Origin: a virus
Lineage: Duplodnaviria; Caudoviricetes
Strand: one strand, 5' to 3'
IMG/VR virus record: IMGVR_UViG_3300043812_000026
DNA length: 64,000 nt
Every line of letters begins with the position of its first letter. The stretch's first letter is position 1. The notes beneath the pieces were generated by a model. The model made no database searches. It was not told where the DNA came from and worked only from the letters and a program-made list of their open reading frames with translations. Below, in pieces: positions 2,418-55,199 of the stretch. A program made the translations under genes and the position numbers.

Positions 2418-4007
2418 CTAATCTGTATTACCTACATTAGTCTCCTCTGGACTCTTAAGATCTTGTTTATTAGGATCTTCCTTAGCGTCTGGTTTCTTAT
2501 CTAATGACTGCTCATGTCCCGGCTTATAATCATTTTGATGTTGTTGTTCTGCATTAGCTTCTGGATTCATCTTATCTTGAATAGCTAACCATTGAATAAG
2601 GTTATCAGAGTTACCCGGAATATCTGGTATATCAAGCTTAGGTAAATGCATCAATGCTCTCGACTCATTTATGGTTAATCCATTCTTAAGTTTTAATGCT
2701 AACTCATCTTGTAGTTGTTTCTCTTTACCTTGATCGCTTGGACTAAAGACAAACATATAATCGGATTCAACATAGCGTAAGATCTTATCAGTCATTAGAC
2801 GTTCAATGTACTTCATAACAGGTTCTAACCCATTATTACGTGAAGCGTCCATTTTGGTTCTAGTAGTATTACCCTCATTTAAGGTACTACCACCAGTCTT
2901 ACCATTAGCTCCCCCACGATTAGGAAAGTTAATCTCGTCTGGTTGGATATTAAAATCAGCACAAATAATATTATTAAGATAATTAAGAAAATTAACAAAT
3001 TCCATATCCTTAGAGGATTGTGTCATATTGACATACTTTGCATCATGTGCTTGAATAATTGGAATTTTCCACGAACCATTGATTCCTTGTGCTGGAGTTA
3101 AATTACGTCTTAATGCGTCTAAGTTAGACTGAGAAGTACCAGAACCGTCACCCGGATCTAAAAGCAACAGACCACGAGTCATACCACCTTGACTAAAGAA
3201 ACGAGCATTAAATTGCTCAACATTAATATGGTACTGAATATGTTCCATACCTGCTTCAACAGGTGAAAAACCATACCCACCAGAATAAGGCTTATCTTGA
3301 CTCCAATAAGTAGAAAATACTAGCTCCTTACTATTAAAATAAATTCTATCTTTATCACTAGCATTACTGTTAACTACCTGCACAAAGGATTTAGGTTTAT
3401 CAATACTAGTAGGGTATTTATCAATTAAAACCGTAGAAGCGTCTACATGGTTAAAATGATTTAATTTATTAGATCTTTTACTTTCATAAACCCGTTCAAT
3501 ATTAACTTGGTCAAACACATAAAAATCATAAATAATCTTAGCTAAGAAAGTTGGGAAATCATCACGCCAGTCTAATTGGTCCTTACCAGTATAAAAGATA
3601 AAGTCCTCTAGCTTTTTAGCAACATTTTTTTCATGTGTTGTCATATCACTAAGTTGCTTGCCTTTTTTAACAACTCTAAACCCATTACCGTCATTAGATA
3701 AACGGGCAGGAGTAGCAAAGTTTAAGATCTGATTAGTTCTAGTTCTAATAATTGCTTGAACTAATAGATCATCTGCATAAGCTCTTAGTTGGTCTTTCTT
3801 TCTTAAATAATAATCTTGGTTAATCTTTTCTCGCTGGGGGTTTTGGCGATTGTGACTATCTGCACCAATTTGAATATAAGCATTATCAACCCGCTGGTCT
3901 GATCTACCAGCTCTAAAGCTTTTAGCAATTTCTTGCTTATTCAACTGTTCAAGATCAATGTAATCATCAGCATTCTCAGAGCCAAACCAGCGATCTAAAA
4001 AACTCAT
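2418..4007 (-). CDS. Portal protein
   Basis: YGFSPVE, FNARFFSQGGMTRGLL, DMEF and TINESR motifs; 529 aa; directly after terminase. Confidence 0.92.
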   Translation of the reverse strand: MSFLDRWFGSENADDYIDLEQLNKQEIAKSFRAGRSDQRVDNAYIQIGADSHNRQNPQREKINQDYYLRKKDQLRAYADDLLVQAIIRTRTNQILNFATPARLSNDGNGFRVVKKGKQLSDMTTHEKNVAKKLEDFIFYTGKDQLDWRDDFPTFLAKIIYDFYVFDQVNIERVYESKRSNKLNHFNHVDASTVLIDKYPTSIDKPKSFVQVVNSNASDKDRIYFNSKELVFSTYWSQDKPYSGGYGFSPVEAGMEHIQYHINVEQFNARFFSQGGMTRGLLLLDPGDGSGTSQSNLDALRRNLTPAQGINGSWKIPIIQAHDAKYVNMTQSSKDMEFVNFLNYLNNIICADFNIQPDEINFPNRGGANGKTGGSTLNEGNTTRTKMDASRNNGLEPVMKYIERLMTDKILRYVESDYMFVFSPSDQGKEKQLQDELALKLKNGLTINESRALMHLPKLDIPDIPGNSDNLIQWLAIQDKMNPEANAEQQHQNDYKPGHEQSLDKKPDAKEDPNKQDLKSPEETNVGNTD

Positions 4008-8480: not shown

Positions 8481-9940
8481 CTGCTATATAAAATGTGAAC
8501 AAACATAATCCTATATGCTAAGTAATTATGTTTGAGAAAGAAATATAGCTTTTCCTTTCTTTATTTTATTTACTGTCGTCAACGCTGGTATTCTCATATC
8601 CTAACTAGAGGGTAATGGCATTGACCAACTATTACAGCTTAAGGGCTTAGCCAGCCCCAATTATATTTTTTTCTTCTTTACGCTAAAGCCAAAAGATTTA
8701 AGACTGCATTTTGGTCTCGATCCATTACCACACCGCATTCATAACAAATATATTCATTGTGTTTAGTACCATGTTTTTGATTACCATCGAGACCAATTTT
8801 ATCTTTGCCTTGCTTGATGTGACCACATGCAGAACAGCGTTGTGTTGATGGATAGAATTGATCAGCTAAGATTAATTCTTTACCATACCATTCACACTTA
8901 TAGGTTAATATTTGTCTAAAATAACCAAACAGTGATCTCTGCATACCTTTAGAAGCTACATGAGTCATCTGCATCTGTTTGACTGCTAAATCTTCAATGA
9001 CAGTCTGGTCATAACTATCAACCAGCTTAGTCGTAAACTTCTGCAAAAGATCATGTTGGATATTAACTACTTTACGATAATCACGTTGCAACTTGGCTCT
9101 CGTTTTAACGTAATTATTACTTTGTGTAGCTAACTTACCATTAACCTTTCTCTTACGAGCTAGCATTTTTTGATAATGCCTGATCCGCTTATAAAGCTTT
9201 TGCAATTTAGCAGGTAAGACGTTAAGCTTCCCATCAGTATAGTTAAAGTGACCTACATTTAGATCTACTGCCGTCTTATTACCAGTTTTAGGTTTCTTAG
9301 CTATTTCAACTTCAAAAGGTAGGCTAGCCCAGTATTTACCATTTTCACGATAAATTGAAACAACTTTTAAATCACCATCTAAAGCCTTAGCACCTTTAAA
9401 ACTAATATCATACCAAGTTTTAACTCTGTGTGGTTTATCAAGTCTTAACTTACCATTAACAATCTTAGCTCTATCAGTTTTAAATCCTTGTCTAGGAGCT
9501 TTCTTAGATTTAAATCTAGGCTTTCCCCAATCAGGTAATGCTTTATTAAAGAACTTCTTCCAAGCATTACCTAAATCAGAAATTGCTAAGTATAAACACC
9601 GTGACGATAAACTATATTGCCAGTCAGCTTTATTAGAGGATAACTCCTTACGGACTCTGCTTTCATTAGGGATAGGATTGTCTTTCTTGTTCAAGTTATG
9701 AGCTTCATACATATCATTCCACAGCTCTAACCCTTGATTCCAACAATATCTACGATAATCGCATAGATCATCAAGAACTTTCTTCATTGTTTGGTTGGGA
9801 TAGAGTCTTACCTTTTGAACTCGAATCATTATTTTCACCACCTTGCATTGACATAATATCTACCTCACATTTTATCTTTCTGTAGATATTATATCATAGG
9901 TGATCGTATTTTAATATCCTTTAATTAACAGTTAATCACC
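8481..9940 (-). mobile_element. Non-autonomous IS607-like tnpB element
   Basis: tnpB followed by a roughly 200-nt structured 3' region ending TATAGCAG|G; no tnpA; left end approximate. Confidence 0.6.
8678..9841 (-). CDS. tnpB: TnpB RNA-guided nuclease
   Basis: RLYPN N-terminus; RuvC D (AVDLN), E (IEDL), D (DRDQNA); CxxC zinc ribbon. Confidence 0.93.
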   Translation of the reverse strand: MVKIMIRVQKVRLYPNQTMKKVLDDLCDYRRYCWNQGLELWNDMYEAHNLNKKDNPIPNESRVRKELSSNKADWQYSLSSRCLYLAISDLGNAWKKFFNKALPDWGKPRFKSKKAPRQGFKTDRAKIVNGKLRLDKPHRVKTWYDISFKGAKALDGDLKVVSIYRENGKYWASLPFEVEIAKKPKTGNKTAVDLNVGHFNYTDGKLNVLPAKLQKLYKRIRHYQKMLARKRKVNGKLATQSNNYVKTRAKLQRDYRKVVNIQHDLLQKFTTKLVDSYDQTVIEDLAVKQMQMTHVASKGMQRSLFGYFRQILTYKCEWYGKELILADQFYPSTQRCSACGHIKQGKDKIGLDGNQKHGTKHNEYICYECGVVMDRDQNAVLNLLALA

Positions 9941-15056: not shown

Positions 15057-15211
15057 TAGACCCTTGCATTCCCCTTTCTTATCACATGGTTTCGCTAATT
15101 GTAATATAGGGGATTAAACATAAGCAAAATAAAAAACCTTTCCTGCATTATAACAAGAAAGGATGTAAACAAAATTATAAGTATAGTAACAATTAACTAA
15201 AATATCAATAA

Positions 15212-22109: not shown

Positions 22110-22784
22110 TTACCAACCACCAGTTTTTGGCGTATTTTGCCAGCCACCATAGCGACTATTAGCATAATAGTTGGCGAATGCGTCTTGGGTAGCAGGATCC
22201 ATTGACCACTTCATACCAGTTGCACTTTCAATTCCAGCGATAGTTTGTGGTGCAAATTGGTATGCGCCAATGTAACCGTTACCAGTATTAGTATTGTAGT
22301 TACCACCAGATTCGATAGAACGCCGAAGGGCGGCCATTGAATTACCAGCAAGTGAGCTGTTAGTAGTATCCTTAGCTGGTTGACTTTGAACTGGGGTAGT
22401 TGATTGTTGTACAGGTGCTTGTGATTGCACTGGTTGGTTCTGTACAGGTTGAGTATTAACAGTAGCTTGACTAGCTGGTTGAGCTTGGCTAACTACTGGA
22501 GCCTGTACATTGTTAGTAGTTGATTGTTGTGCTTCTGGAGTAAGCACTAAAATATCACCAACGAAGATCTTGTTAGCATCGCTAAGGTTACTAGCGGATG
22601 CAATTGTTGATACGTCAGTACCGTACTTGTTAGCAATACTAGAAACAGTGTCTCCAGCTTCTACCCGTACATGAGTATCATCAATCTTAGTGTCAGCATT
22701 AGCTGTAGTAGCACCAAGTAAAGCACCTGCCATCACAGCACCAGCTAAAGCGAATTTAACATTTTTGTTCTTAGATAATAAAAT
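22110..22784 (-). CDS. Secreted LysM plus lysozyme-like (Apf/transglycosylase-type) protein
   Basis: Signal peptide ..ATTANA-D, LysM, Q/P/T linker, IESGGNY..NGYIGAYQF; start ambiguous (frame open upstream of 22736). Confidence 0.85.
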   Translation of the reverse strand: MLLSKNKNVKFALAGAVMAGALLGATTANADTKIDDTHVRVEAGDTVSSIANKYGTDVSTIASASNLSDANKIFVGDILVLTPEAQQSTTNNVQAPVVSQAQPASQATVNTQPVQNQPVQSQAPVQQSTTPVQSQPAKDTTNSSLAGNSMAALRRSIESGGNYNTNTGNGYIGAYQFAPQTIAGIESATGMKWSMDPATQDAFANYYANSRYGGWQNTPKTGGW

Positions 22785-22960
22785 AAACCATCTATCCTTT
22801 CATTTACATACGAATTCTTTGTTTGTTCATATAAAATTCATATTTGATTACACTCTTACTATAGCACGCACCAGTTACAGAACAACTACAGAAATATTAC
22901 AACAATATTACAAAATTAAGACAAAATAAAAAGACCTGTCAATTAGACAAGTCCTAATTA

Positions 22961-26924: not shown

Positions 26925-26941
26925 TCGAAAAGACGCTTTAT

Positions 26942-28403
26942 CAAGGATAATTGGCGAGAATACCCCCACTTTGATAAGTGGGAGATGAATCGCCTTTTTG
27001 TTATAATAAAGAGTTTGCAAATCTTGCCTTGACTTCTTCTAAGTTTTGAAGTTATACTTCGCTTATAGAAGAAAAGAGGTGAAATGAATGTTAAAGGGAG
27101 TAAAATTACGCTTATATCCTAATGCTAAGCAACGGGATCAGTTAACTCAAATGTTTGGTAATGCTAGATTCATCTGGAACATTATGCTAGACATGGCTAA
27201 AGCTAGATATAAGAATAATCCTAGTAGTCAATTTGTAAATGAATATGGAATGAATTACTTGGTAAAGCAATTAAAACAAGAATATCCATTCTTGAAAGAA
27301 AGTGAGGCTAGAAGTTTACAAATATCTAATCATTACTTAAACCAATCCTTTAAGATGTTATTTAAACACCAAGGTGGCTATCCTAGGTTTAAAAGTCGTA
27401 AAGCTACTAAACAATCTTATACTGGTGATGGTAGTCGTGGTGGTTGTCATATTATAGCTAAACGTTATATAAGACTACCTAAACTAGGTTCTATCAAGAC
27501 TAGTAAGACTAGCCAATTAGAAGGACTAAAGATTAAAAGATATACAGTTACCTTAGATCCCACTGGTAGATATTATTTATCTTTAATGGTTGATGATCCT
27601 AATATCCAACCTTTAGAACCTACTGGAGCTGTTGTAGGGATAGATATGGGAGTAGCTGATCTAGCTATTACCAGTGATGGTTATAAATACCCTAAGTTCA
27701 ATACTCCTTACTTAGATCATAAGGTAGTAGAAGCTCAATCTAAGTTTAGTAAACGTAAACAAAGAGCTTTAGTTAGAGTAAGACAATGGAATCATAATCA
27801 TAAAGATACTAAGATGGAGTTAGAAGATTATTCTAATTGGCAGAAAGCACAAAAACAGAAAGCCAGATACCAAGCTAAAATAGCTAATAAGCGTAAAGAC
27901 TACTTACATAAGATAACAACTGAATTAGTAAAAAGTTATGATGTGATTGTAATAGAGGATTTGAAAACCAAAAATCTTTTAAAGAATCATCATTTAGCTA
28001 AATCAATTACTAATAACAGTTGGTACTTATTTAGAGAAATGTTGGAGTATAAGTGCAAATGGTATGGTAAACAATTAGTAGTTGTTAAGCCCAATTACAC
28101 TTCACAGATATGCTCTAATTGTGGTTACCACTCTGGTAAGAAACCACTAGATGTTAGAGAGTGGACTTGTCCTAATTGTGGTACTCACCATGATCGAGAT
28201 ATTAATGCTTCAATTAACATTCTAAATAGGGGATTAAAAGAGTTAAAGAAAATTAAGGCTAGGGACTAGCCATGGTAAAAGAGCTTAGTTCTGTAAGTTA
28301 GGTTTAGTGAATACACTTGTAAGATCCTAAATACTACTAAGTGTTCCCAGAATCCCCACTTCAAGTATTAAACTAAAAGTTTAGCTAAGTGGGAGAAGTT
28401 CAA
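26942..28403 (+). mobile_element. IS200/IS605-family tnpB-only element
   Basis: TTTAT immediately 5'; subterminal hairpins CCCACTT..AAGTGGG at both ends; right end GTTCAA; excision rejoins an ACGCT/GGCGT hairpin. Confidence 0.85.
27088..28269 (+). CDS. tnpB: TnpB RNA-guided nuclease
   Basis: HTH_OrfB N-terminus; GIDMG, IEDL, DRDINA; zinc ribbon. Confidence 0.95.
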   Translation: MLKGVKLRLYPNAKQRDQLTQMFGNARFIWNIMLDMAKARYKNNPSSQFVNEYGMNYLVKQLKQEYPFLKESEARSLQISNHYLNQSFKMLFKHQGGYPRFKSRKATKQSYTGDGSRGGCHIIAKRYIRLPKLGSIKTSKTSQLEGLKIKRYTVTLDPTGRYYLSLMVDDPNIQPLEPTGAVVGIDMGVADLAITSDGYKYPKFNTPYLDHKVVEAQSKFSKRKQRALVRVRQWNHNHKDTKMELEDYSNWQKAQKQKARYQAKIANKRKDYLHKITTELVKSYDVIVIEDLKTKNLLKNHHLAKSITNNSWYLFREMLEYKCKWYGKQLVVVKPNYTSQICSNCGYHSGKKPLDVREWTCPNCGTHHDRDINASINILNRGLKELKKIKARD

Positions 28404-30237: not shown

Positions 30238-30376
30238 TAGATAGCAAAAATAAAAGGCTACATAAAAGAGTCAAGAGTCTATATTTTATTCATAATCGGT
30301 ATAAAGTACGTGACTAAAGTAATATATTTTAATTAAAGTATGTTATAATTTAAATAACAACTAAAAATAATAGTTG

Positions 30377-30433
30377 CTAAATACTACTAAGGTAGTTTAT
30401 AGAATCTAAGCTATTCATGACTGAGTAGTTCAC
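30377..30433 (+). mobile_element. Degenerate IS605-type right end / omegaRNA remnant
   Basis: CTAAATACTAC...AGAA..ATTCATGACTGAGTAGTTCAC matches 42524-42578. Confidence 0.65.
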
Positions 30434-37730: not shown

Positions 37731-40700
37731 ATGAAAAGAATGTTAGTAGTATTGGATCATTATGACGCTGATATGTTTAAAGTGGTTAATAAGAAAGCCG
37801 AAGGAAACTTTTTACATAGTGTCGTAGGTTCAATTCTTTCTAATAAAATTATTGGTCACCCAAAAACAGGTTTAGATACGAAAGATACAACAGTAGACTT
37901 GAAGTTTCTTTATACTGATAAAGTACCCCCTCGTAATAAATACACTAATGCAGTTGTTAAGCCATCTGCTAGTATCTTGCATAAGAAACGTGATGAGATG
38001 GTGCAGTATATCTTAGATACTAAACCCGATATTGTTGTTTCTTATGGAAGTTGGTTTAAGAATGAATTAACTTCTTTATATAAACTTCCTAAAGATATGT
38101 TTGAATTAATTCCGTTTAAGCTACCCCAAAGTGACTTTACTACTTACTTAGTATTTAACCCGTCACTTAAACAACAATTCTTCTTGGGTAGCTATGAACG
38201 AGATAAGATGATTATTAGTAATCGAATGGTTAATCGGTTTTTAAAAGGTGGGATTGAGAATACTAAGCCTCAGTTTGGTAAGTATCGTTTAGTTACTAAT
38301 TATCATGAGGTAGAACGTATTTTTAATGAAGTTTTACCTAAGTACCCAATCATCGCACTGGACTTTGAAACTAATACCCTTGAAACTTATCGTAAAGGGT
38401 GCTAAGGCTATTATGGTAAGTATGAGTTGGGAAGAACATCAAGGTGTTTCGATTCCGCTTAATCATCGTCTTAGTCCTAATTTGTGGACTAAAGAACAGT
38501 TCGATAGTATCATTAATATGATTAAAGAATTAATGATGAAAGAGCAACGTAAGGTATTACATAACTGTATCTATGATATTCATATGATGATGGATATTTA
38601 CGGGCTAGAGTATGCTACTAATTGTGTTGATACTATGCTTATGTATTATGAAACAGTGGATGAGAACCAAGGCGCTCAACGTGGGCTAAAGCACTTAGCT
38701 TATAAGTATACTGATATGGGTGGTTATGAAGACGAACGTGATCAAGCTATTGAACAATACTTAAAGAATGATTATGACCGTTGGTATTCTACTGAAATGG
38801 AAAAGTATGAAAAAGGCGAACGTAGTCGTAAGCCAAGTAAGACACAGTATACAGCTCCTACTAACCAAGTAGACGGTGGTAAGGTAGATTTCGAGTGGTT
38901 GCCTATGGAAACTATTTATAAGTACGCTTCTGCTGATACTGATGTTACCCTCCAACTTTATCACATTTTTGATAAAAAGGTTAAGTCTCGTCCTAAGTGG
39001 GTTAAGTTCTGCTATGAATTCTTCCCACAACTATGCGATACTTTAGCTTATATGCAACATACTGGTTTTCAAATGGATATGGATAAAATGGAGAAATACA
39101 GAGAACACTTCACTACTGATATTGAAGAAGTTACTAAAAAGATGTATGAGGTTTCTCCCGAAATCCAAGAATACGAAAATCATAACCTAGCTCTTTTGCA
39201 AGAACGGGAACAGATTAAAGCTATCAAGCCTGCTGATCGGACACCAGAGCAGAAAGAGAAATTTAAGGAATATGGTAAGCTACGTGGTGAAGATACTAAT
39301 GGTATTCCTAAATACAAGTTTAACCCTGGATCTAGTGAAAAGATTGGCTATGTTTTATACCATATGTTAGGCTACAAGCTACCTGCTGATAAAGAGTATT
39401 TAAAACCAAAAGCTGTCCAGTCTCGTAAGTTAAGCCATCCAGAAAAACTTACGTGGAAAGATTATAAGACTGATCGTAATTCAGCCCTACCCTATATTAA
39501 AAAGACTTATCATGCTCCATTAGTTGATTTATTGTTGGCTTATTCCAACGATAAGAAAATGATTAGCTCTACTGTTGAGGGATATAGTAAGCTGGCTGAT
39601 GCTACGGGAAAATCACATCCTACTTTCCACCCATCTGGTTGCTTAGACGGGGACACTTTAATCCCTACCAGTTTAGGTATTAAGAAATTAAAAGATCTTT
39701 CAGACAATAGAGAAGAAGATACTTTTAAGGATTTGAAAATTGATATTATTAATAAAGATAATAATAAAGAATTAACAGACGCTTTTTATTATTCTGGTAT
39801 TCGAGACTCCTATCAGATCAATTTAGAGAATGGTAGTAGTATTATTACTACTCCTAACCATCCTCTGATTGTTAATAATTTTTTAAAAACTAATAATAAA
39901 ATTCCAATGTACAAATATAAAGGAAAACCTTACTTGACTAACTATTTAAGTAAGTTTAATGATGAGGAATGGCTACCTACTAAAGATATTAAGGCAGGTT
40001 ATTGGATTAAAGGTACTATTGGGGGAAATATTTATGGTAATAAGACAACTATTGAATTTAACGACAGTGAATTTCCTAGCAATACTAGAAGTAAAAAGAA
40101 AAAAGTTACCCTCCCACATGAGTTGACTCCAGAGCTAGCAGAATTCTTAGGAATGTATACTGCTGATGGTAGTTATAGTAGTAGCAAAAAGGGTAGCCAG
40201 ATTCTTATTACTAATGATGATCAAGTTGTTCAGGAGAGGTTGGATTATTTAATTAAACACTTATTCAATGTAGATCCTTATTATCGAGTAGATACAAGAC
40301 ACGGTAGGGAAATTACTGTTAATATAGGCTCTACACAAGTTTTTAGGTATCTTAAAAAAATGTTTAATATTAGTTCCCGAGGGTACGAAAAAACCGTCCC
40401 ACAGTTAATATTAGACTCCACAAAAGAAGTTCAATTAGCTTATTTAAAAGGACTTACGCTTGACTCTAGTATTTATAAGAAAGGGTATCCTTCCATTTAT
40501 TTAAGTACAACCTCGGAGGAGCAGGCAAAGGCAGTCTATTCGATGCTATTAAATATTGGTATCTATGCTAGATTTGCTAAACGTAAGATTTACCCTAGAC
40601 TAGGGTATAAACATGAACATCCCTTATATGATATAATGATTAGTCACGAAGACGTAAAAGTTTTTGTAGAGTGTATAGGATTTGTTGAAATAGAAGAAAA

Positions 40701-42430
40701 GCTTAAACCTTTGATTGCTAAAATAAATAATTATTCTTATACGAAAAAACCTAAACATTATGGTGTTATAAGATATAATAATTTTATATGGTTAAAAATA
40801 AAGTCTATTGATTATTTAGGAAAAAGACCTATGTATGACTTAAAGACTTGTGACACTCATAGTTTTTTAGGTAACAATATTATTAGTCATAATACGTCTA
40901 CTTCTAGGCTCTCTAGTAGTAATTTTAATGCCCAGAATATTAAAAAGCCTACAAGTGACGTTTATGATCCTAATTATAATTATTCAGCTAAAGGACTATT
41001 TAAGTCAAGATTTAAGGGTGGATATATTTTTAATATTGATTATAAGTCACTAGAAATCTTTATTTCTTCTTTAATTGCTAAAGATATTGGTATGATGCAG
41101 GCTTTAATGGATGGTGCTGATATACATAAACGTAACGCTAGTTTAGCTTTTAACATTCCTGTTGATGAGGTAGATTCCGAACATAGATACCTTGCGAAAG
41201 CCGTAGACAAACTTGCGGCCATATTATAGTAATATAATTTGAAAAACATCCCCTAAACGGGCTTACCGTAATAAGGTGGTAAGAGAAGCTAAACCTTATA
41301 ATTTAAGTAGGGCAGGCTAATCCCGTACCAAGTTAAAACAGGTCTAACGACTATATAGGGAATATCCTAATAGGATAAAGATATAGTCTTAACTATAACG
41401 AAAGTTATTAGACAAAAATGAAGTTTTGGTTAATTACTAAAAGTAAGCCACTTTTAACAGTAATGTTAATTGAAAAATATCCCCTAAACGGGCTTACCGT
41501 AATAAGGTGGTAAGAGAAGCTAAACCTTATAATTTAAGTAGGGCAGGCTAATCCCGTACCAAGTTAAAACAGGTCTAACGACTATATAGGGAATATCCTA
41601 ATAGGATAAAGATATAGTCTAATCTACTTAGAAATAAGTAGTTAATATAATTGTTACTTTACGGAGAGTCTCCACAAGGACTTTCAGAGTCACGTGGATT
41701 AACTTTAGAAGAAGCTCAACAGGTTTATGATAAAGTGCTAAGTGCTATGCCACAAATGCAAAAGGCGATTGAGGTTACCGAAGACTTTGTAGAGCAACGG
41801 GGATATGTAGAGACGATTGCAGGACACGTAAGACGATTACCAGAAGCTACTCAGAGTTTAGATTATGGTAAGAAATCTCGTGCTATACGTCAGTCTTTTA
41901 ACGCAGTTGTTCAAGGTAGCGGAGCATATTGTACTAATACTGCTCTAATTATCATTCGCAATACGTTACGTAAATATGGGTTAAAGTCTCGTATTGCTAT
42001 TACGGTGCATGACTCGATCGTATTAGACGTACACCCAGATGAAATTAATATTGTCCCAGCAATGGCAAAGAAGATTATGGAACATTTACCTATTCAAGAT
42101 TTTATTCTTAACATAAATGATTTCCCTACTTTAAAAATTGCTGATAAGTATAAGATTAATGATACTCAATTCCGTTTCCCACTTTTCGGTGAAATTGCTT
42201 TTGGCAAGACTTATGGTGATGATCTTGACTTCGACTTTGATGATTACAAAGCTCTGGGGATTGATAGGTATTATCAATTTAGTATGGAATGTAAGTACAT
42301 TGAGGATAAGGCTAATACTGATTTAAGTAAGGAAGATGATAATGATAAGAAAGCTGAGATTGTTAAACAACGAGATCGGCAATTAGAGGAAATTAGAAAT
42401 AAATATTTTAAAAAGGTTGACAATAAATAA
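37731..42430 (+). CDS. polA: Family A DNA polymerase (join 37731-41204, 41421-41430, 41654-42430; one extra base near 38397; intein)
   Basis: Exo motifs DFET, HN..YD, YASAD; RLSS; motif A DYKSLE; reconstructed motif B KAVSFGLLYG; motif C VHDS; mature length about 1001 aa. Confidence 0.92.
39640..40893 (+). mobile_element. Intein with LAGLIDADG endonuclease (418 aa)
   Basis: G|CLDGDT ... TPNHP ... LGMYTADG ... YLKGLTLD ... YDL..ISHN|T. Confidence 0.93.
41205..41420 (+). mobile_element. ORF-less group I intron 1 in polA
   Basis: P1 GCCGU/GCGGC, P10 AAACUU/AAGUUU, P7 GACUA/UAGUC, terminal G. Confidence 0.9.
41431..41653 (+). mobile_element. ORF-less group I intron 2 in polA
   Basis: P1 UGGU/GCCA, P10 AAAGUAA/UUACUUU; core nearly identical to intron 1; terminal G. 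Confidence 0.9.
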
Positions 42431-42445
42431 TGTATGTTATATACT
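42417..42445 (+). promoter_or_regulatory. Near-consensus sigmaA promoter
   Basis: TTGACA-17 nt-TATACT. Confidence 0.8.
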
Positions 42446-42453
42446 ATACTTAT

Positions 42454-42594
42454 GGTTAGGGACTAGCCGTGGTAAGATAGCAAAGTTCTGTAAGTTAGGT
42501 ATTCAGAATACTGATGTAAGATCCTAAATACTACCTTGTGTTCCCAGAAACTTAGTCATTCATGACCGAGTAGTTCACTATAATAACTGTTGAC
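42454..42594 (+). ncRNA. Orphan TnpB omegaRNA (scaffold 42454-42578 plus guide)
   Basis: Shares TAGGGACTAGCC, AGTTCTGTAAGTTAGGT, TGTAAGATCCTAAATACTAC and GTGTTCCCAGAA with 28257-28403; ends GTTCAC; no tnpB or left end adjacent. Confidence 0.8.
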
Positions 42595-42852
42595 AGATAT
42601 GTTAACGAATCTGATTTTAACAAGTTGTACCTAGCATAAAGGCGTTCCTATTTTATTACAAGTTTAATATGGGATTATCTTACGTCCAGCTAGAAATTAC
42701 AGCTAATCGCATAAAACAGTTCCTATTTAAAATTGACTCGAAATCAACCTACAGTTTACTGTTAGCGATTAATGAAAGTTCCTTATAGCGGGTACATAGC
42801 GTGCACAGCCCGTTGTAGGGAACTTTTTACATACAAGAAAGGAAGTATAATA

Positions 42853-44946
42853 ATGAAAAACTTTTCATATGCTATGTTAAATTCAATTAATGACGTAACT
42901 ATTCGCTTATTTAAGGGAGTAGATATGGATATTCAGGGGGATAAGGTTTCCCGTTCTGCTACAGAAGTTCAAAAAATGGCTAGAAACGCTATGAGTTACG
43001 GGCTTATGTTTGATACTGAAATCCTAAAGTCTGTTTCCGTAATGGCATTAAAAGATATTTTCAATACAGCAAAAAAATATTACGGAATTAGTAATAGTAT
43101 GGTTAATTCAACCTTCTTCCAGACTTTAGATCAGAATATTAATACTCCTACTTATATGCGAATGTATATGCAGGCTCTTAACTACTTGCAAACATATGGT
43201 GGAGTTAATGTAACTAGTCACGAAACTGTTCAGTTTGGCTCTAATCGGCAATTAGACGATAGTATTAAATTAGATTTACAACAAAACTTTACAGTCATTT
43301 CTGCTTTTACAACCGAAGAATTAAATCAAAAGGTTCAGTCTTTACTTTACAGTGGTATGGCTTTAGAATCTAAAGCTGTTGAGGATTTAATTTACTTAAT
43401 TAGTAAACTGAATCTAAAAATTGAAATTAGTAAAGTTAAGAACCGTGAAGCTATGATTAAGCTTAGCAAGGAGTTAGAGCTTTATCCAGCAAATCCAGAT
43501 ATGTTTATGAATTACATTTACAGTTTAGTTACTGGTGATACAATGCTGGTAAAGAACGATCAAGCTTACCTTAAATTTAATGATATGCTCCTTGATTCTA
43601 ATTCTACTAATGACTTTGTTTATTCATTAATGCACGAATATGACAGTAACCATTCAACGCCTTCACTAAGATCATTAGTTAATCGTTACCACAAGATGTT
43701 CTTAATCCTACGTAAGAATGCTCCTTCAAGAGAAGAAAGACGTTTCTACAATCGTATCATGCGTCAAGGTAAGAATACTAAGAAAAATTACCGTCAAAAA
43801 GGTATTTTAGATCAGTTGCCAGAATACATTAAAGGTGAAGTATCTTTTACTGAAAAGCAGATTTTAGGTGCTTTATCTAATGCTAGTACCTATAAATTAG
43901 CTCGTATTTATACTTATCTAGTTAACCTAAATAAGAAAGATAAGAATGGATCGCTATATCGAATCCGTAACGGTAAGTCTTATTATGTATCTGGTAAGGA
44001 AGACCTCGATGATATTTTTAACTCATTTATCTCCTTTAAGAATGTTGCTGATAATAAAGTGATTAAGGATTTAGTTTCTAAGATTGTAGATGAGCTTCTC
44101 CAGCGGGGACAAAATGCTTTTGCTGATAACGATAATAAAACTGTTTACTATATTCCGGGTGGGCTATATTATAGCATTCCTACCTCTGGTAAGCAGTTTA
44201 CTGGTAATATTCCAGATTACACTAGCTTTGACTTCCAATTGACTGGTGACGAACGACTTGGTGTAGGTATCCACTGGGACAAGCAAGCAGATCTCGACTT
44301 ACACGCTGTTACCTTAGATGGTGATACCTTTGGTTGGAATACTGATTGGTTGGACGATGATAGTAAGGTTGTCTATTCTGGTGATATGACACGTTTAGAT
44401 GATAGTGGAAATGCTAGTGAAATTATGTCCCTTTCTAAGGACTTAGATAAACCAGTCTTATTATCTGTATCTCCATACTATGTTGACGGGGGCTACAAAG
44501 ATTTCAACTTTGACTTATTTGTAACTCGTTTTAATCAAGGAAAACTTAGTTCAGATTTAAACTCAACGCCTGAGGTTTATGTTAAAAGTATCTCCAAAGA
44601 TGCTTTTAACATTAATAAGTTATCCTTTAAGAATCAAAGTACCATGACTCTAGGGGTGATTATTCCTCGTGGGGACGGAAAATTTAGCTTTGTAATTACT
44701 AATTTTAATTTCGGTGCAGTACACGTCCCAAACCAAGATCAGAATAAGCAATTATTAAGCTACCTCAATGATTATACTGAAAATGTTCCGCTCTTAAATA
44801 ATATTCTCGGTGGTAAGTTAGTTGATGATAAAGACTTATTACCACACTACACAGAACAAGGTTACAAGGTAGTGGACTTATCGCCAGCCAATGTAACTGT
44901 TGATACTTTCACTGATTTAATTGATGAGTTAGATGAAAACAAATAG
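42853..44946 (+). CDS. Large conserved phage protein with TerD-like C-terminal motif
   Basis: GIHW..DLDLHA..GWN..YSGDMT; RBS AAAGGAAG supports ATG 42853 rather than 42772. Confidence 0.7.
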   Translation: MKNFSYAMLNSINDVTIRLFKGVDMDIQGDKVSRSATEVQKMARNAMSYGLMFDTEILKSVSVMALKDIFNTAKKYYGISNSMVNSTFFQTLDQNINTPTYMRMYMQALNYLQTYGGVNVTSHETVQFGSNRQLDDSIKLDLQQNFTVISAFTTEELNQKVQSLLYSGMALESKAVEDLIYLISKLNLKIEISKVKNREAMIKLSKELELYPANPDMFMNYIYSLVTGDTMLVKNDQAYLKFNDMLLDSNSTNDFVYSLMHEYDSNHSTPSLRSLVNRYHKMFLILRKNAPSREERRFYNRIMRQGKNTKKNYRQKGILDQLPEYIKGEVSFTEKQILGALSNASTYKLARIYTYLVNLNKKDKNGSLYRIRNGKSYYVSGKEDLDDIFNSFISFKNVADNKVIKDLVSKIVDELLQRGQNAFADNDNKTVYYIPGGLYYSIPTSGKQFTGNIPDYTSFDFQLTGDERLGVGIHWDKQADLDLHAVTLDGDTFGWNTDWLDDDSKVVYSGDMTRLDDSGNASEIMSLSKDLDKPVLLSVSPYYVDGGYKDFNFDLFVTRFNQGKLSSDLNSTPEVYVKSISKDAFNINKLSFKNQSTMTLGVIIPRGDGKFSFVITNFNFGAVHVPNQDQNKQLLSYLNDYTENVPLLNNILGGKLVDDKDLLPHYTEQGYKVVDLSPANVTVDTFTDLIDELDENK

Positions 44947-44956
44947 TTAATTAATA

Positions 44957-44980
44957 AGAGACTTTTAGGTCTCTTTTTAT
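44957..44980 (+). terminator. Intrinsic terminator
   Basis: AAGAGAC-TTTTAG-GTCTCTT followed by a T run. Confidence 0.75.
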
Positions 44981-45001
44981 TTTTAATTTTTTGTACAAAA
45001 G

Positions 45002-45060
45002 TAGTTGAAAATTCAACTAAAAGTGTTATACTTATAATTGAAATAAGGAAAGGAAGGGAT
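45002..45060 (+). promoter_or_regulatory. Promoter with palindromic operator (duplicated at 49659-49713)
   Basis: TAGTTGAA-AA-TTCAACTA over the -35; TGTTATACT extended -10; AAGGAAAGGAAG leader. Confidence 0.7.
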
Positions 45061-49610: not shown

Positions 49611-49721
49611 ACTAAAGTCCTTTATAGGGCTTTTTATTTTTATCTTTTTACACAAAAATAGTTGAATATTTAACTAAAAGTGTTATACTTATAATTGAAA
49701 TAAGGAAAGGAAGTTGTAAGG

Positions 49722-52848: not shown

Positions 52849-53991
52849 TTTTATAACTCCCTTTCTTTATTACATTATAATAATAACATTGTTGGTTTAG
52901 ATTGTCAATAGTTTTTCTAAATAATTAAGAGTTTAAGCTTAACTCTCAAAATAAATCCTTGTTTCTTATTACACTTTTATAATAGCATACTTTTAACATA
53001 ATGCAAGCCCTAATTTTAATTTTTATTGATTGATTTTAGCAATTATAGCACCTACTAGATAAACAATAACTAGAATAGCCCTAATTTTCCATGTAAGCTA
53101 TTCTGAGGCGTTTTATCATTGTTTAGGTATAATCTATCATTAAAGAATAAAAATGAATTATACGGGGTTATATAAAGAAATAGGGCTATAGGATAATCAA
53201 GTTTCTTTTTTCTAAATAAGTATTGACAATGAAGCCTAATAATGTTATTATAATAATGAAAGGTAAATAGAACAAGCCCAGATAGCTGGTAAGGGAAACC
53301 GTTTTGGTTGTTGTTAGCTAGATATGTTTAGAGTAATCCGTACTTTTTTAAAAATCAATTGTCTACTTCCCTAATCATATACATCCACCGTATAGCCCTA
53401 ATTAATCCAAGGCTATATTCTGTTCTCAATGTTACAGTCCATATTATTCAGTTGTTTAATTAGTTTGTTTTTATCCTTATCACTTCCCTTCCTTAACTTT
53501 CAATTATATTATATCATTATGTAATCGTATTGTCAACACATTTATAGAATTAATTGGATCGATCCACTTATTAATAATGCTATTATATCAGTCTTCACGG
53601 GGCTTTTTTAACTCTAAAATTTATCAGTTGTTAAAATATTTTTATTAATTTATTTATACATTTTTGGTTCCATTCTGTTTTGATTAGTCTTTAATTAGTT
53701 TACTTTGCCTTTAATTAGTCCTTTATTGTTTGAATATTGTTATGTATTAGTCCTATATAGCTAATATTATGCTTGTTTTAGGCTTTATTAGTCTAATTAA
53801 GGCTTTTTATCCTCTTTTATTGGCTTTTATAAGGCTTTTTTATTGTTTTTAATTAGTGAAAATCATCACTAATTACTCTTGTTATGCTTATCTTTTATAT
53901 ATAAAATTAAAAGGGTGAAAACTCGTTAAACGTTGATATTACAACATTCTCAGTTTTTACCCTTGCTTGTGAATTGTTTAATTTATTCCCT

Positions 53992-55122: not shown

Positions 55123-55199
55123 AATTATAACTCCCTTTCTTTATTACATTATTATAATAACATTGTTTTGTTATATTGTCAATAGATTAAATTAAAAAA

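Follow-up and report, generated by a model that had tools for sequence, protein, structure and literature searches.

TnpB is the ancestor of Cas12, and their history includes a shift from one transposon-encoded guide to separately encoded guides. The omegaRNA (also called reRNA) of TnpB elements of the IS200/IS605 family, such as ISDra2 and ISGst, was reportedly described in 2021 by Karvelis and by Altae-Tran. Transposon homing is driven by cleavage at the vacant donor joint, and the omegaRNAs encoded by palindrome-associated transposable elements (PATEs) have been proposed to use TnpB in trans (Meers 2023, PMC10055086). TldR proteins and their guide RNAs are RNA-guided repressors (Wiegand 2023/2024, PMC10705468). 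T-even phages have free-standing and defunct homing endonuclease systems, in which MobE reportedly causes I-TevIII to home in trans (PMC2790892) and SegB (PMC2330249) and SegF reportedly bring about marker exclusion. Homing of transposons against co-infecting phages is a category in a 2026 review (PMC13565253). The literature that we searched yielded no description of solo omegaRNA genes of phages, that is, of left-end-less, promoter-fused genes that recur in large phages and have the naive sibling as their target pool. Here we analyze such a gene, the orphan omegaRNA of one pig-gut Lactobacillaceae phage, in a stretch of 64,000 nucleotides (IMG/VR record IMGVR_UViG_3300043812_000026; the window, or W in comparisons of alleles). 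The orphan is a variation on known PATE/omegaRNA biology. Like the omegaRNAs of ISDra2 and ISGst, it combines a scaffold spanning the right end of an element, a guide supplied by the flank, a target in the empty site next to a transposon-adjacent motif (TAM), and a TnpB partner with a D-E-D triad. Unlike them, it is detached from tnpB, has no left end, and carries its own promoter at the first base of the scaffold.

The orphan (Table 1) corresponds to the omegaRNA module at the right end of a tnpB element (IS200/IS605 family, IS1341 type), an element common among Limosilactobacillus and Lentilactobacillus. Its scaffold was 83-84% identical to positions 28257-28352, at the 3' end and downstream of the tnpB gene of the window. 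A covariance model (R1), built on 58 distinct copies of the family, recovered the orphan over its full length (1-125) with 140.6 bits and an E value of 7e-33; the tnpB-linked copy of the window scored lower, with 123.8 bits. Single-sequence folding gave weak z-scores (-0.27 for the orphan), and we therefore relied on covariation instead. The family consensus structure has 27 pairs, 8 of them with double compensatory changes in the 58-copy alignment (for example columns 29/87, 30/86, 31/85, 51/63, 52/62 and 53/60, with 13-34 such sequences each), and all helices are kept in the orphan save for one A.C in the central stem. The end motif is GTTCAC in the orphan and GTTCAA in the tnpB-linked window copy. 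The terminal hairpin of the orphan (ACTTAGTCATTCATGACCGAGT followed by AGTTCAC) is of a common bacterial type, which is also native to the TnpBs of LP65 and of the relative L036 (74% and 89% identical to the window TnpB, respectively).

The family was surveyed by searching for a conserved 17-mer of the scaffold. Matches were found in phage contigs and in Limosilactobacillus and Lentilactobacillus, with many copies per genome. Most copies (56) lay directly behind tnpB, 16 were at contig edges, and 9, at six distinct sites, were without tnpB. The orphan follows the DNA polymerase gene rather than the 3' end of a tnpB gene, with a distance of 14 kb to the nearest tnpB. Neither tnpB nor a left-end hairpin was found beside it; positions 42380-42453 contain none, the stop codon of the polymerase gene running into the promoter. 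The scaffold family is absent from Rfam, and the sole transposon RNA match in the window was Transposase-1 at 8579-8637, which is part of a second, unrelated tnpB (see below).

The nearest relative, G001 (IMG/VR 3300043781_000024), co-occurs with the window phage, is near-isogenic and lacks the element. Its site reads TTGACAATAACCAGTAATTAGTTTAT up to the insertion point and TATAATAACTGTTGACAGG beyond it, and forms a perfect TTGACA-N17-TATTATAAT promoter that belongs to the early-promoter family. In the window, the orphan sits right after TTTAT, inside the -10 of this resident phage promoter, which lies behind the DNA polymerase gene. In G001, GTTTAT is followed by an 18-nt match to the orphan guide, TATAATAACTGTTGACAG; in the carrier, the same sequence is preceded by GTTCAC, which is not a TAM. 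The only other guide match of at least 10 nt in the window (13272, minus strand, 12 nt) is without a TAM. By this comparison, the guide is the unaltered flank of the ancestral promoter site. A scan of metagenome contigs with the 18-mer guide gave 21 matches, all in unrelated chance contexts, and in viral contigs the related matches were the filled alleles and G001 only.

Filled and empty alleles came from one sample. Two filled contigs, L013 and L015, equal G001 with 0-1 differences over 41050-42426 and 42600-42798 (about 1.7 kb), the exceptions being the orphan itself and a change at 42595-42599. W in turn equals L013, with zero differences over 42344-42731, while its left flank differs by about 5-6% and the sequence further right by about 7%. 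This tract of identity amid diverged flanks indicates that the same orphan is present in two backgrounds on a short shared tract. The pig-metagenome DNA contig X1 showed 4 differences in 847 nt on the right versus 24 in 527 nt on the left. X1 is also one of two further alleles that are not readable in full: it has 67 other nucleotides for 42427-42453, and the second, X15, has 58 other nucleotides for 42427-42618.

A patch of 4-5 nt at 42597-42600 (guide positions 19-23) varies between alleles, reading ATAT in W and L013 and GAAGT in G001, whereas the read sets X1 and X17 have a third version. The patch adjoins the usual TnpB cut position, and the 130-200 nt around it do not differ. A repair scar, an escape change and a marker of co-conversion are conceivable explanations.

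The promoter in front of the scaffold was the top-scoring site in 41500-43500. Its predicted transcription start lies 1-2 nt ahead of the scaffold, which begins 8 nt past the -10. Since the promoter is fused at the first base of the scaffold, the RNA would arise directly and with its native 5' end, forming the 5' portion of the downstream gene's transcript. The -10 and the ensuing ATACTTAT resemble the promoter and leader of tnpB in the parent insertion sequence (IS), as seen over the 37 nt between -35 and scaffold: TTGACA-17-TATACT-ataCTTATgg in the orphan versus TTGACT-18-TATACT-tcgCTTATag for tnpB (27029-27068). The promoter and leader of tnpB now abut the first base of the scaffold, and the tnpB open reading frame (ORF) and the left end are gone. 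We infer from these junctions that the orphan arose by deletion of the tnpB ORF, which would have fused the beginning of the tnpB mRNA to the scaffold. Loss of the left end probably came about through recombination of two -35 elements, one in the IS promoter and one in the resident promoter, because W and G001 share their sequence as far as TTGACAATAA. The orphan and the resident promoter of the empty allele have the -35 in common. Intermediate forms are the L010 mini-IS (see below), L011 (3300043781_000026), where tnpB is followed by two scaffolds in tandem, and a decayed scaffold fragment in the window (Table 1). The first-pass annotation of the window had described a full omegaRNA scaffold homologous to that of the tnpB at 27088, located right behind a near-consensus promoter, without tnpB or left end and with a deviating end motif; this description was borne out in all its parts.

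With PATEs the orphan shares the lack of tnpB, the retained omegaRNA and the proposed use of TnpB in trans. Unlike them, it has no left-end hairpin, and it is therefore not a transposable PATE; it is fixed and could spread only by recombination. A true PATE example was found in a relative, L010, a mini-IS with left-end hairpin, promoter, small hairpin and scaffold, for which comparison with G001 shows a clean insertion at TTTAT.

The TnpB encoded 14 kb away, which sits in its own IS with left and right ends, is the sole plausible protein partner that the window offers. It is closely related to ISDra2 TnpB (E 3e-56), and its RuvC D-E-D triad is intact, with the motifs GIDMGV, IEDL and HDRD at the catalytic positions of TnpB-family nucleases. 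It is 74-89% identical to TnpBs that natively use an orphan-type scaffold.

Table 1. Positions in the window of the orphan omegaRNA, the tnpB element and related features.
Feature	Position	Strand	Basis or remark
Sigma-70-type promoter of the orphan, TTGACA-17-TATACT	-35 42417-42422, -10 42440-42445	+	11/12 consensus positions
OmegaRNA scaffold of the orphan, 125 nt, ends GTTCAC	42454-42578	+	Homology, covariance model, fold
Guide = insertion flank TATAATAACTGTTGACAG..., -10/start region of the ancestral promoter	42579-42598	+	Comparison with G001
tnpB, 393 aa, only plausible protein partner	27088-28269	+	Pfam OrfB_IS605, Cas12f1-like TNB, HTH
Own omegaRNA scaffold of tnpB, ends GTTCAA	28257-28403	+	Guide from 28404 (GGGCGTGTATCAAG...)
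Left end of the tnpB element	26942-27087	+	TTTAT 26937-26941; hairpin CCCCACTT..AAGTGGGAG at about 26963-26985
tnpB promoter, TTGACT-18-TATACT	27029-27058	+	Within the left-end region
Degenerate scaffold fragment	30359-30433	+	3' part + terminal hairpin + GTTCAC; TTATAAT and hairpin upstream
Partial guide match at an early promoter, CATTAT then TATAATAAC	55148-55167	+	9-nt prefix, 10/16 positions

The TAM was taken from filled/empty pairs, because bacterial left-end flanks were ambiguous at the boundary, allowing TTTTT, TTTAT or TTTGA readings. Against G001, the TAM was TTTAT for the orphan (18 nt matching) and for the L010 mini-element (20 nt, a clean pair), ATTAT for the element of L036 (18 nt, also a clean pair), and GCTAT for scaffold A of L011 (14 nt). 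The guide of the window tnpB gave CCTAT, against both G001 and L032 (contig 3300043781_000037; 20 nt). Judging from these pairs, the family TAM would be roughly YTAT. The first-pass annotation had regarded ATTAT as an imperfect TAM; this caveat falls away with its natural use by the L036 element. Together with a minimal scaffold of 125 nt, this natural TAM set (TTTAT, ATTAT, CCTAT, GCTAT) is available for a TnpB that is 74-89% identical to several relatives. The 94.6 kb of G001 examined contain neither a scaffold nor a tnpB of the orphan's family, and they carry TAM-flanked matches of 14-20 nt to the guides of five elements in relatives.

For elements that relatives carry, the window has unoccupied sites in altered form. 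The site of L010 has TTTAG as its TAM and only 6 matching target nucleotides (15198-15210, minus strand), and at the L011B target TTTAT is kept with only 10 nt matching (22777-22860, minus strand). These sites could be resistant alleles. The second scaffold of L011 (6150-6230, minus strand; also in L161) has the guide TATCTAAGAAGAACAA, and a 16-nt copy of this guide, preceded by TTTAT, lies 45 nt downstream as an apparent self-target. The tnpB of this tandem locus begins with ATA, not ATG.

The orphan omegaRNA could act only in trans. We favor, with about evenly balanced confidence, the reading that it is a trans-acting homing or competition guide against sibling phages without the insertion. 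The TnpB of the window would bind the orphan RNA in trans, and the complex would recognize TTTAT followed by TATAATAACTGTTGACAG, a site found only in genomes without the insertion, such as that of the sibling G001. The carrier genome would be spared because its copy of the sequence follows GTTCAC. Upon co-infection, a cut empty allele would either be repaired from the filled allele, which amounts to homing and would spread the orphan, or be lost, which amounts to competition. Matches of 8-9 nt between the guide seed and other promoters of the family would be a by-product. The homing or competition reading is supported by the intact, high-scoring scaffold, the exact filled/empty allele pair, the identical orphan in two diverged backgrounds, the intact TnpB of the window, the five TAM-flanked matches in G001, and the recurrence of the same build, with own terminators, in two other phage contigs (L059 and L054, see below).

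The proposed cutting of a co-infecting relative's allele, followed by co-conversion of the element with a short flank, resembles the behavior of T-even homing endonucleases; it differs from it in that specificity would come from an RNA guide and not from protein-DNA recognition. The carrier is a large and probably virulent phage, and the "vacant site" would therefore be located in a co-infecting sibling phage and not on a sister chromosome. Use of omegaRNA in trans and RNA-guided homing or exclusion between co-infecting phages thereby become directly testable in a tractable and harmless phage-host system.

In pig-gut RNA libraries of two studies, contigs with starts at 42460 and 42479 cross the guide and continue to about 42915, and the same two RNA runs gave no cover on the polymerase gene. 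RNA contigs that start inside the scaffold weakly support an active trans guide. The read evidence consists of Logan contigs, which do not show true 5' ends or expression levels.

Several points weigh against a homing or competition guide. The RNA contigs cannot prove a transcription start, the window copy has no terminator after the guide, and the promoter may have been kept only for the needs of the downstream gene. At columns 32/84, the central stem has an A.C in place of an otherwise invariant A-U pair, a change unique to the orphan (1 of 58 copies); a second A.C, in its terminal hairpin, also occurs in two tnpB-linked copies. The short tract of identity could stem from ordinary recombination. 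Any IS insertion matches its own empty site, so that the target in G001 does not by itself prove function, and most contigs of relatives are fragments. Binding of the orphan RNA by TnpB and cutting of the empty allele are predictions from sequence.

Some of these points also fit a passive remnant. In that case, the IS would have hit the promoter of the downstream gene, deletions of tnpB and the left end would have restored a promoter from the resident -35 and the -10 of the IS, and the scaffold would lie inert in the 5' leader of the mRNA of gene 42772-44946. The -35 and the next 10 nt are indeed common to the promoter of the empty allele, RNA contigs continue into the downstream gene past a guide without terminator, and the unique mismatch in an invariant pair would fit decay. 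Without a left end, the orphan is not movable by TnpA. A clearly decayed scaffold fragment of like kind is present elsewhere in the window (Table 1; 85% identity over 33 nt, 17.4 bits, E 0.09). However, the orphan scaffold scores as high as tnpB-linked copies and is identical in two diverged backgrounds, and the two independent phage orphans have the same promoter-scaffold spacing and their own terminators and are not leaders. We consider a passive remnant tenable, if on the improbable side.

Behind the decayed fragment come CTTAGTTGCAGGAATTAG and a tRNA-like stretch; fragment and flank recur in L032 at 2962-3088.

The two further orphans are tnpB-less copies in other phage contigs. That of L059 (contig 3300043781_000014, from the same metagenome as G001) reads TTGACA-17-TATACT-atgtttat-GGTTAGGG and is followed by a terminator. 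Its homology to the window begins 10 nt ahead of the -35, whereas terminal hairpin, guide and neighbors differ. In L054, the promoter is TTGACA-18-TATACT and a terminator starts 24 nt past the scaffold. L059 and L054 are independent phage copies of the same promoter-scaffold build, and they are stand-alone units. When an empty allele of the L059 orphan was sought, L059 itself was the only match. We also considered convergence as the source of the likeness between the W and L059 promoters and judged it less likely than a common origin from the tnpB promoter, which is favored by the shared TATACT-N3-(C/T)TTAT-GG and the identical spacing. Natural tnpB-less guide genes, with the promoter at the first base of the scaffold and an intact nuclease in trans, thus recur in phages.

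A bolder reading is that the genes form a dispersed multi-guide TnpB system. One nuclease gene would then be served by several solo promoter-fused omegaRNA genes (the W orphan and the types of L059 and L054) as an RNA-guided weapon and gene drive against siblings without the insertions, and, its guide having been captured from a promoter, the ribonucleoprotein (RNP) might also dampen TATTATAAT early promoters via TAM-flanked seeds of 8-9 nt. We regard such a system as rather unlikely. If true, it would represent a natural midpoint on the way from transposon nucleases with a single guide to systems based on arrays.

The first-pass annotation had proposed that the orphan is a domesticated trans-acting guide for shut-down of early promoters in the manner of CRISPR interference (CRISPRi), as its guide seed matches the early promoter repeat. 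The match as such was confirmed. The seed TATAATAAC, preceded by CATTAT, is present at 55153, 55609, 57959 and 58434 on the plus strand and at 53252 on the minus strand, and the 9-mer occurs 15 times in the window versus 3.1 expected. However, the promoters cited are minus-strand promoters; the palindrome GTTATTATAATAAC causes TATAATAAC to be read on the plus strand as well at the four plus-strand positions. The excess of the 9-mer arises because it lies within the repeated promoter TTGACA-N17-TATTATAAT, of which the window contains 7 copies versus 0 expected, 6 of them on the minus strand in a block of small early genes. Past position 9 the early-promoter sites match poorly (10/16), compared with TTTAT and 18 nt in G001. 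When a 14-mer guide was searched with up to 3 mismatches, 26 matches were found versus 24 expected, which is no enrichment, and none of the 4 cited sites was matched. Because the empty site is itself a TTGACA-N17-TATTATAAT promoter, the 9-nt seed reflects shared ancestry and not retargeting. The proposal thus retains an orphan that is intact, promoter-driven and plausibly trans-acting, with a 9-nt seed and ATTAT at the early promoters. There is no sign of domestication for shut-down of early promoters: the guide equals the ancestral flank and, unlike in TldR proteins, the TnpB triad is intact.

In its mechanistic form, this earlier model would have TnpB and the orphan RNA dock by a seed of 8-9 nt on the -10 regions of early promoters and repress without cutting. 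Five early promoters offer CATTAT with the 9-nt prefix on one strand and TGTTAT with an 8-nt prefix on the other. With a guide of 10 nt, a nuclease-competent TnpB binds but does not cut (PMC13507860), and some TldRs use guides of 9-11 nt with a seed of about 6 nt (PMC10705468). Since ATTAT is a natural TAM of the family, weak seed binding at early promoters is a possible by-product. As with TldR, the components would be a TnpB-family RNP with an omegaRNA-derived guide, and TldR targets are TAM-flanked, overlap promoters and involve short seeds. Unlike TldR, which has a degraded RuvC and a fixed gene association, the TnpB of the window is intact and sits 14 kb away in its own IS, the orphan lies between the polymerase gene and an uncharacterized gene and not beside tnpB, and the full-length guide match is the empty allele. 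With its triad intact and no tldR-like gene association, the window TnpB does not qualify as TldR-like. The guide shows no sign of retargeting, the match of 10/16 is explained by promoter paralogy, an AT-rich duplex of 9 nt would be weak, and G001 has the same early promoters, yet no tnpB or scaffold of the family in 94.6 kb. We therefore consider dedicated repression of early promoters quite improbable.

The scaffold is co-transcribed with a long structured leader, which allows for a TnpB-independent role in cis, in which scaffold and the GUUCCUAUUU units at 42631-42771 would serve stability, processing or translation of the mRNA. However, the empty allele of G001 and the other read alleles express the downstream gene without a scaffold, and conservation of the scaffold follows the omegaRNA model and not a leader-specific one. 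A cis-regulatory leader is accordingly very improbable. The repeated GUUCCUAUUU units of the leader are of the GTTCCTATTT type.

The slot of the tnpB element (26942-28403) is occupied differently in G001. There (L159 17641-18849), a free-standing endonuclease-like gene of 304 aa is found together with a 79-aa ORF. The 304-aa gene has zinc-ribbon repeats and an IEFDGKQH-type motif, so that two different mobile nucleases share one slot. A second tnpB of the window (387 aa, 8579-9841, minus strand) is 30% identical to the first, and its guide RNA belongs to the Rfam family Transposase-1 (62 bits).

The ORF upstream of the orphan encodes the C-terminal part of a family-A DNA polymerase that is split. 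The polymerase gene (38326-42430) also contains an intein, which has a LAGLIDADG domain, and a further split lies between 41229 and 41651; the locus is crowded with mobile elements. For the downstream gene (42772-44946), no family was found in Pfam or PHROGs. Megablast against public phages gave no match to the window, and distant blastn matches were confined to polymerase genes and the 3' end of the LP65 transposase. Intergenic repeats of about 85 nt are common to the window (44974-45056 and 49631-49713) and L059 (5246-5330).

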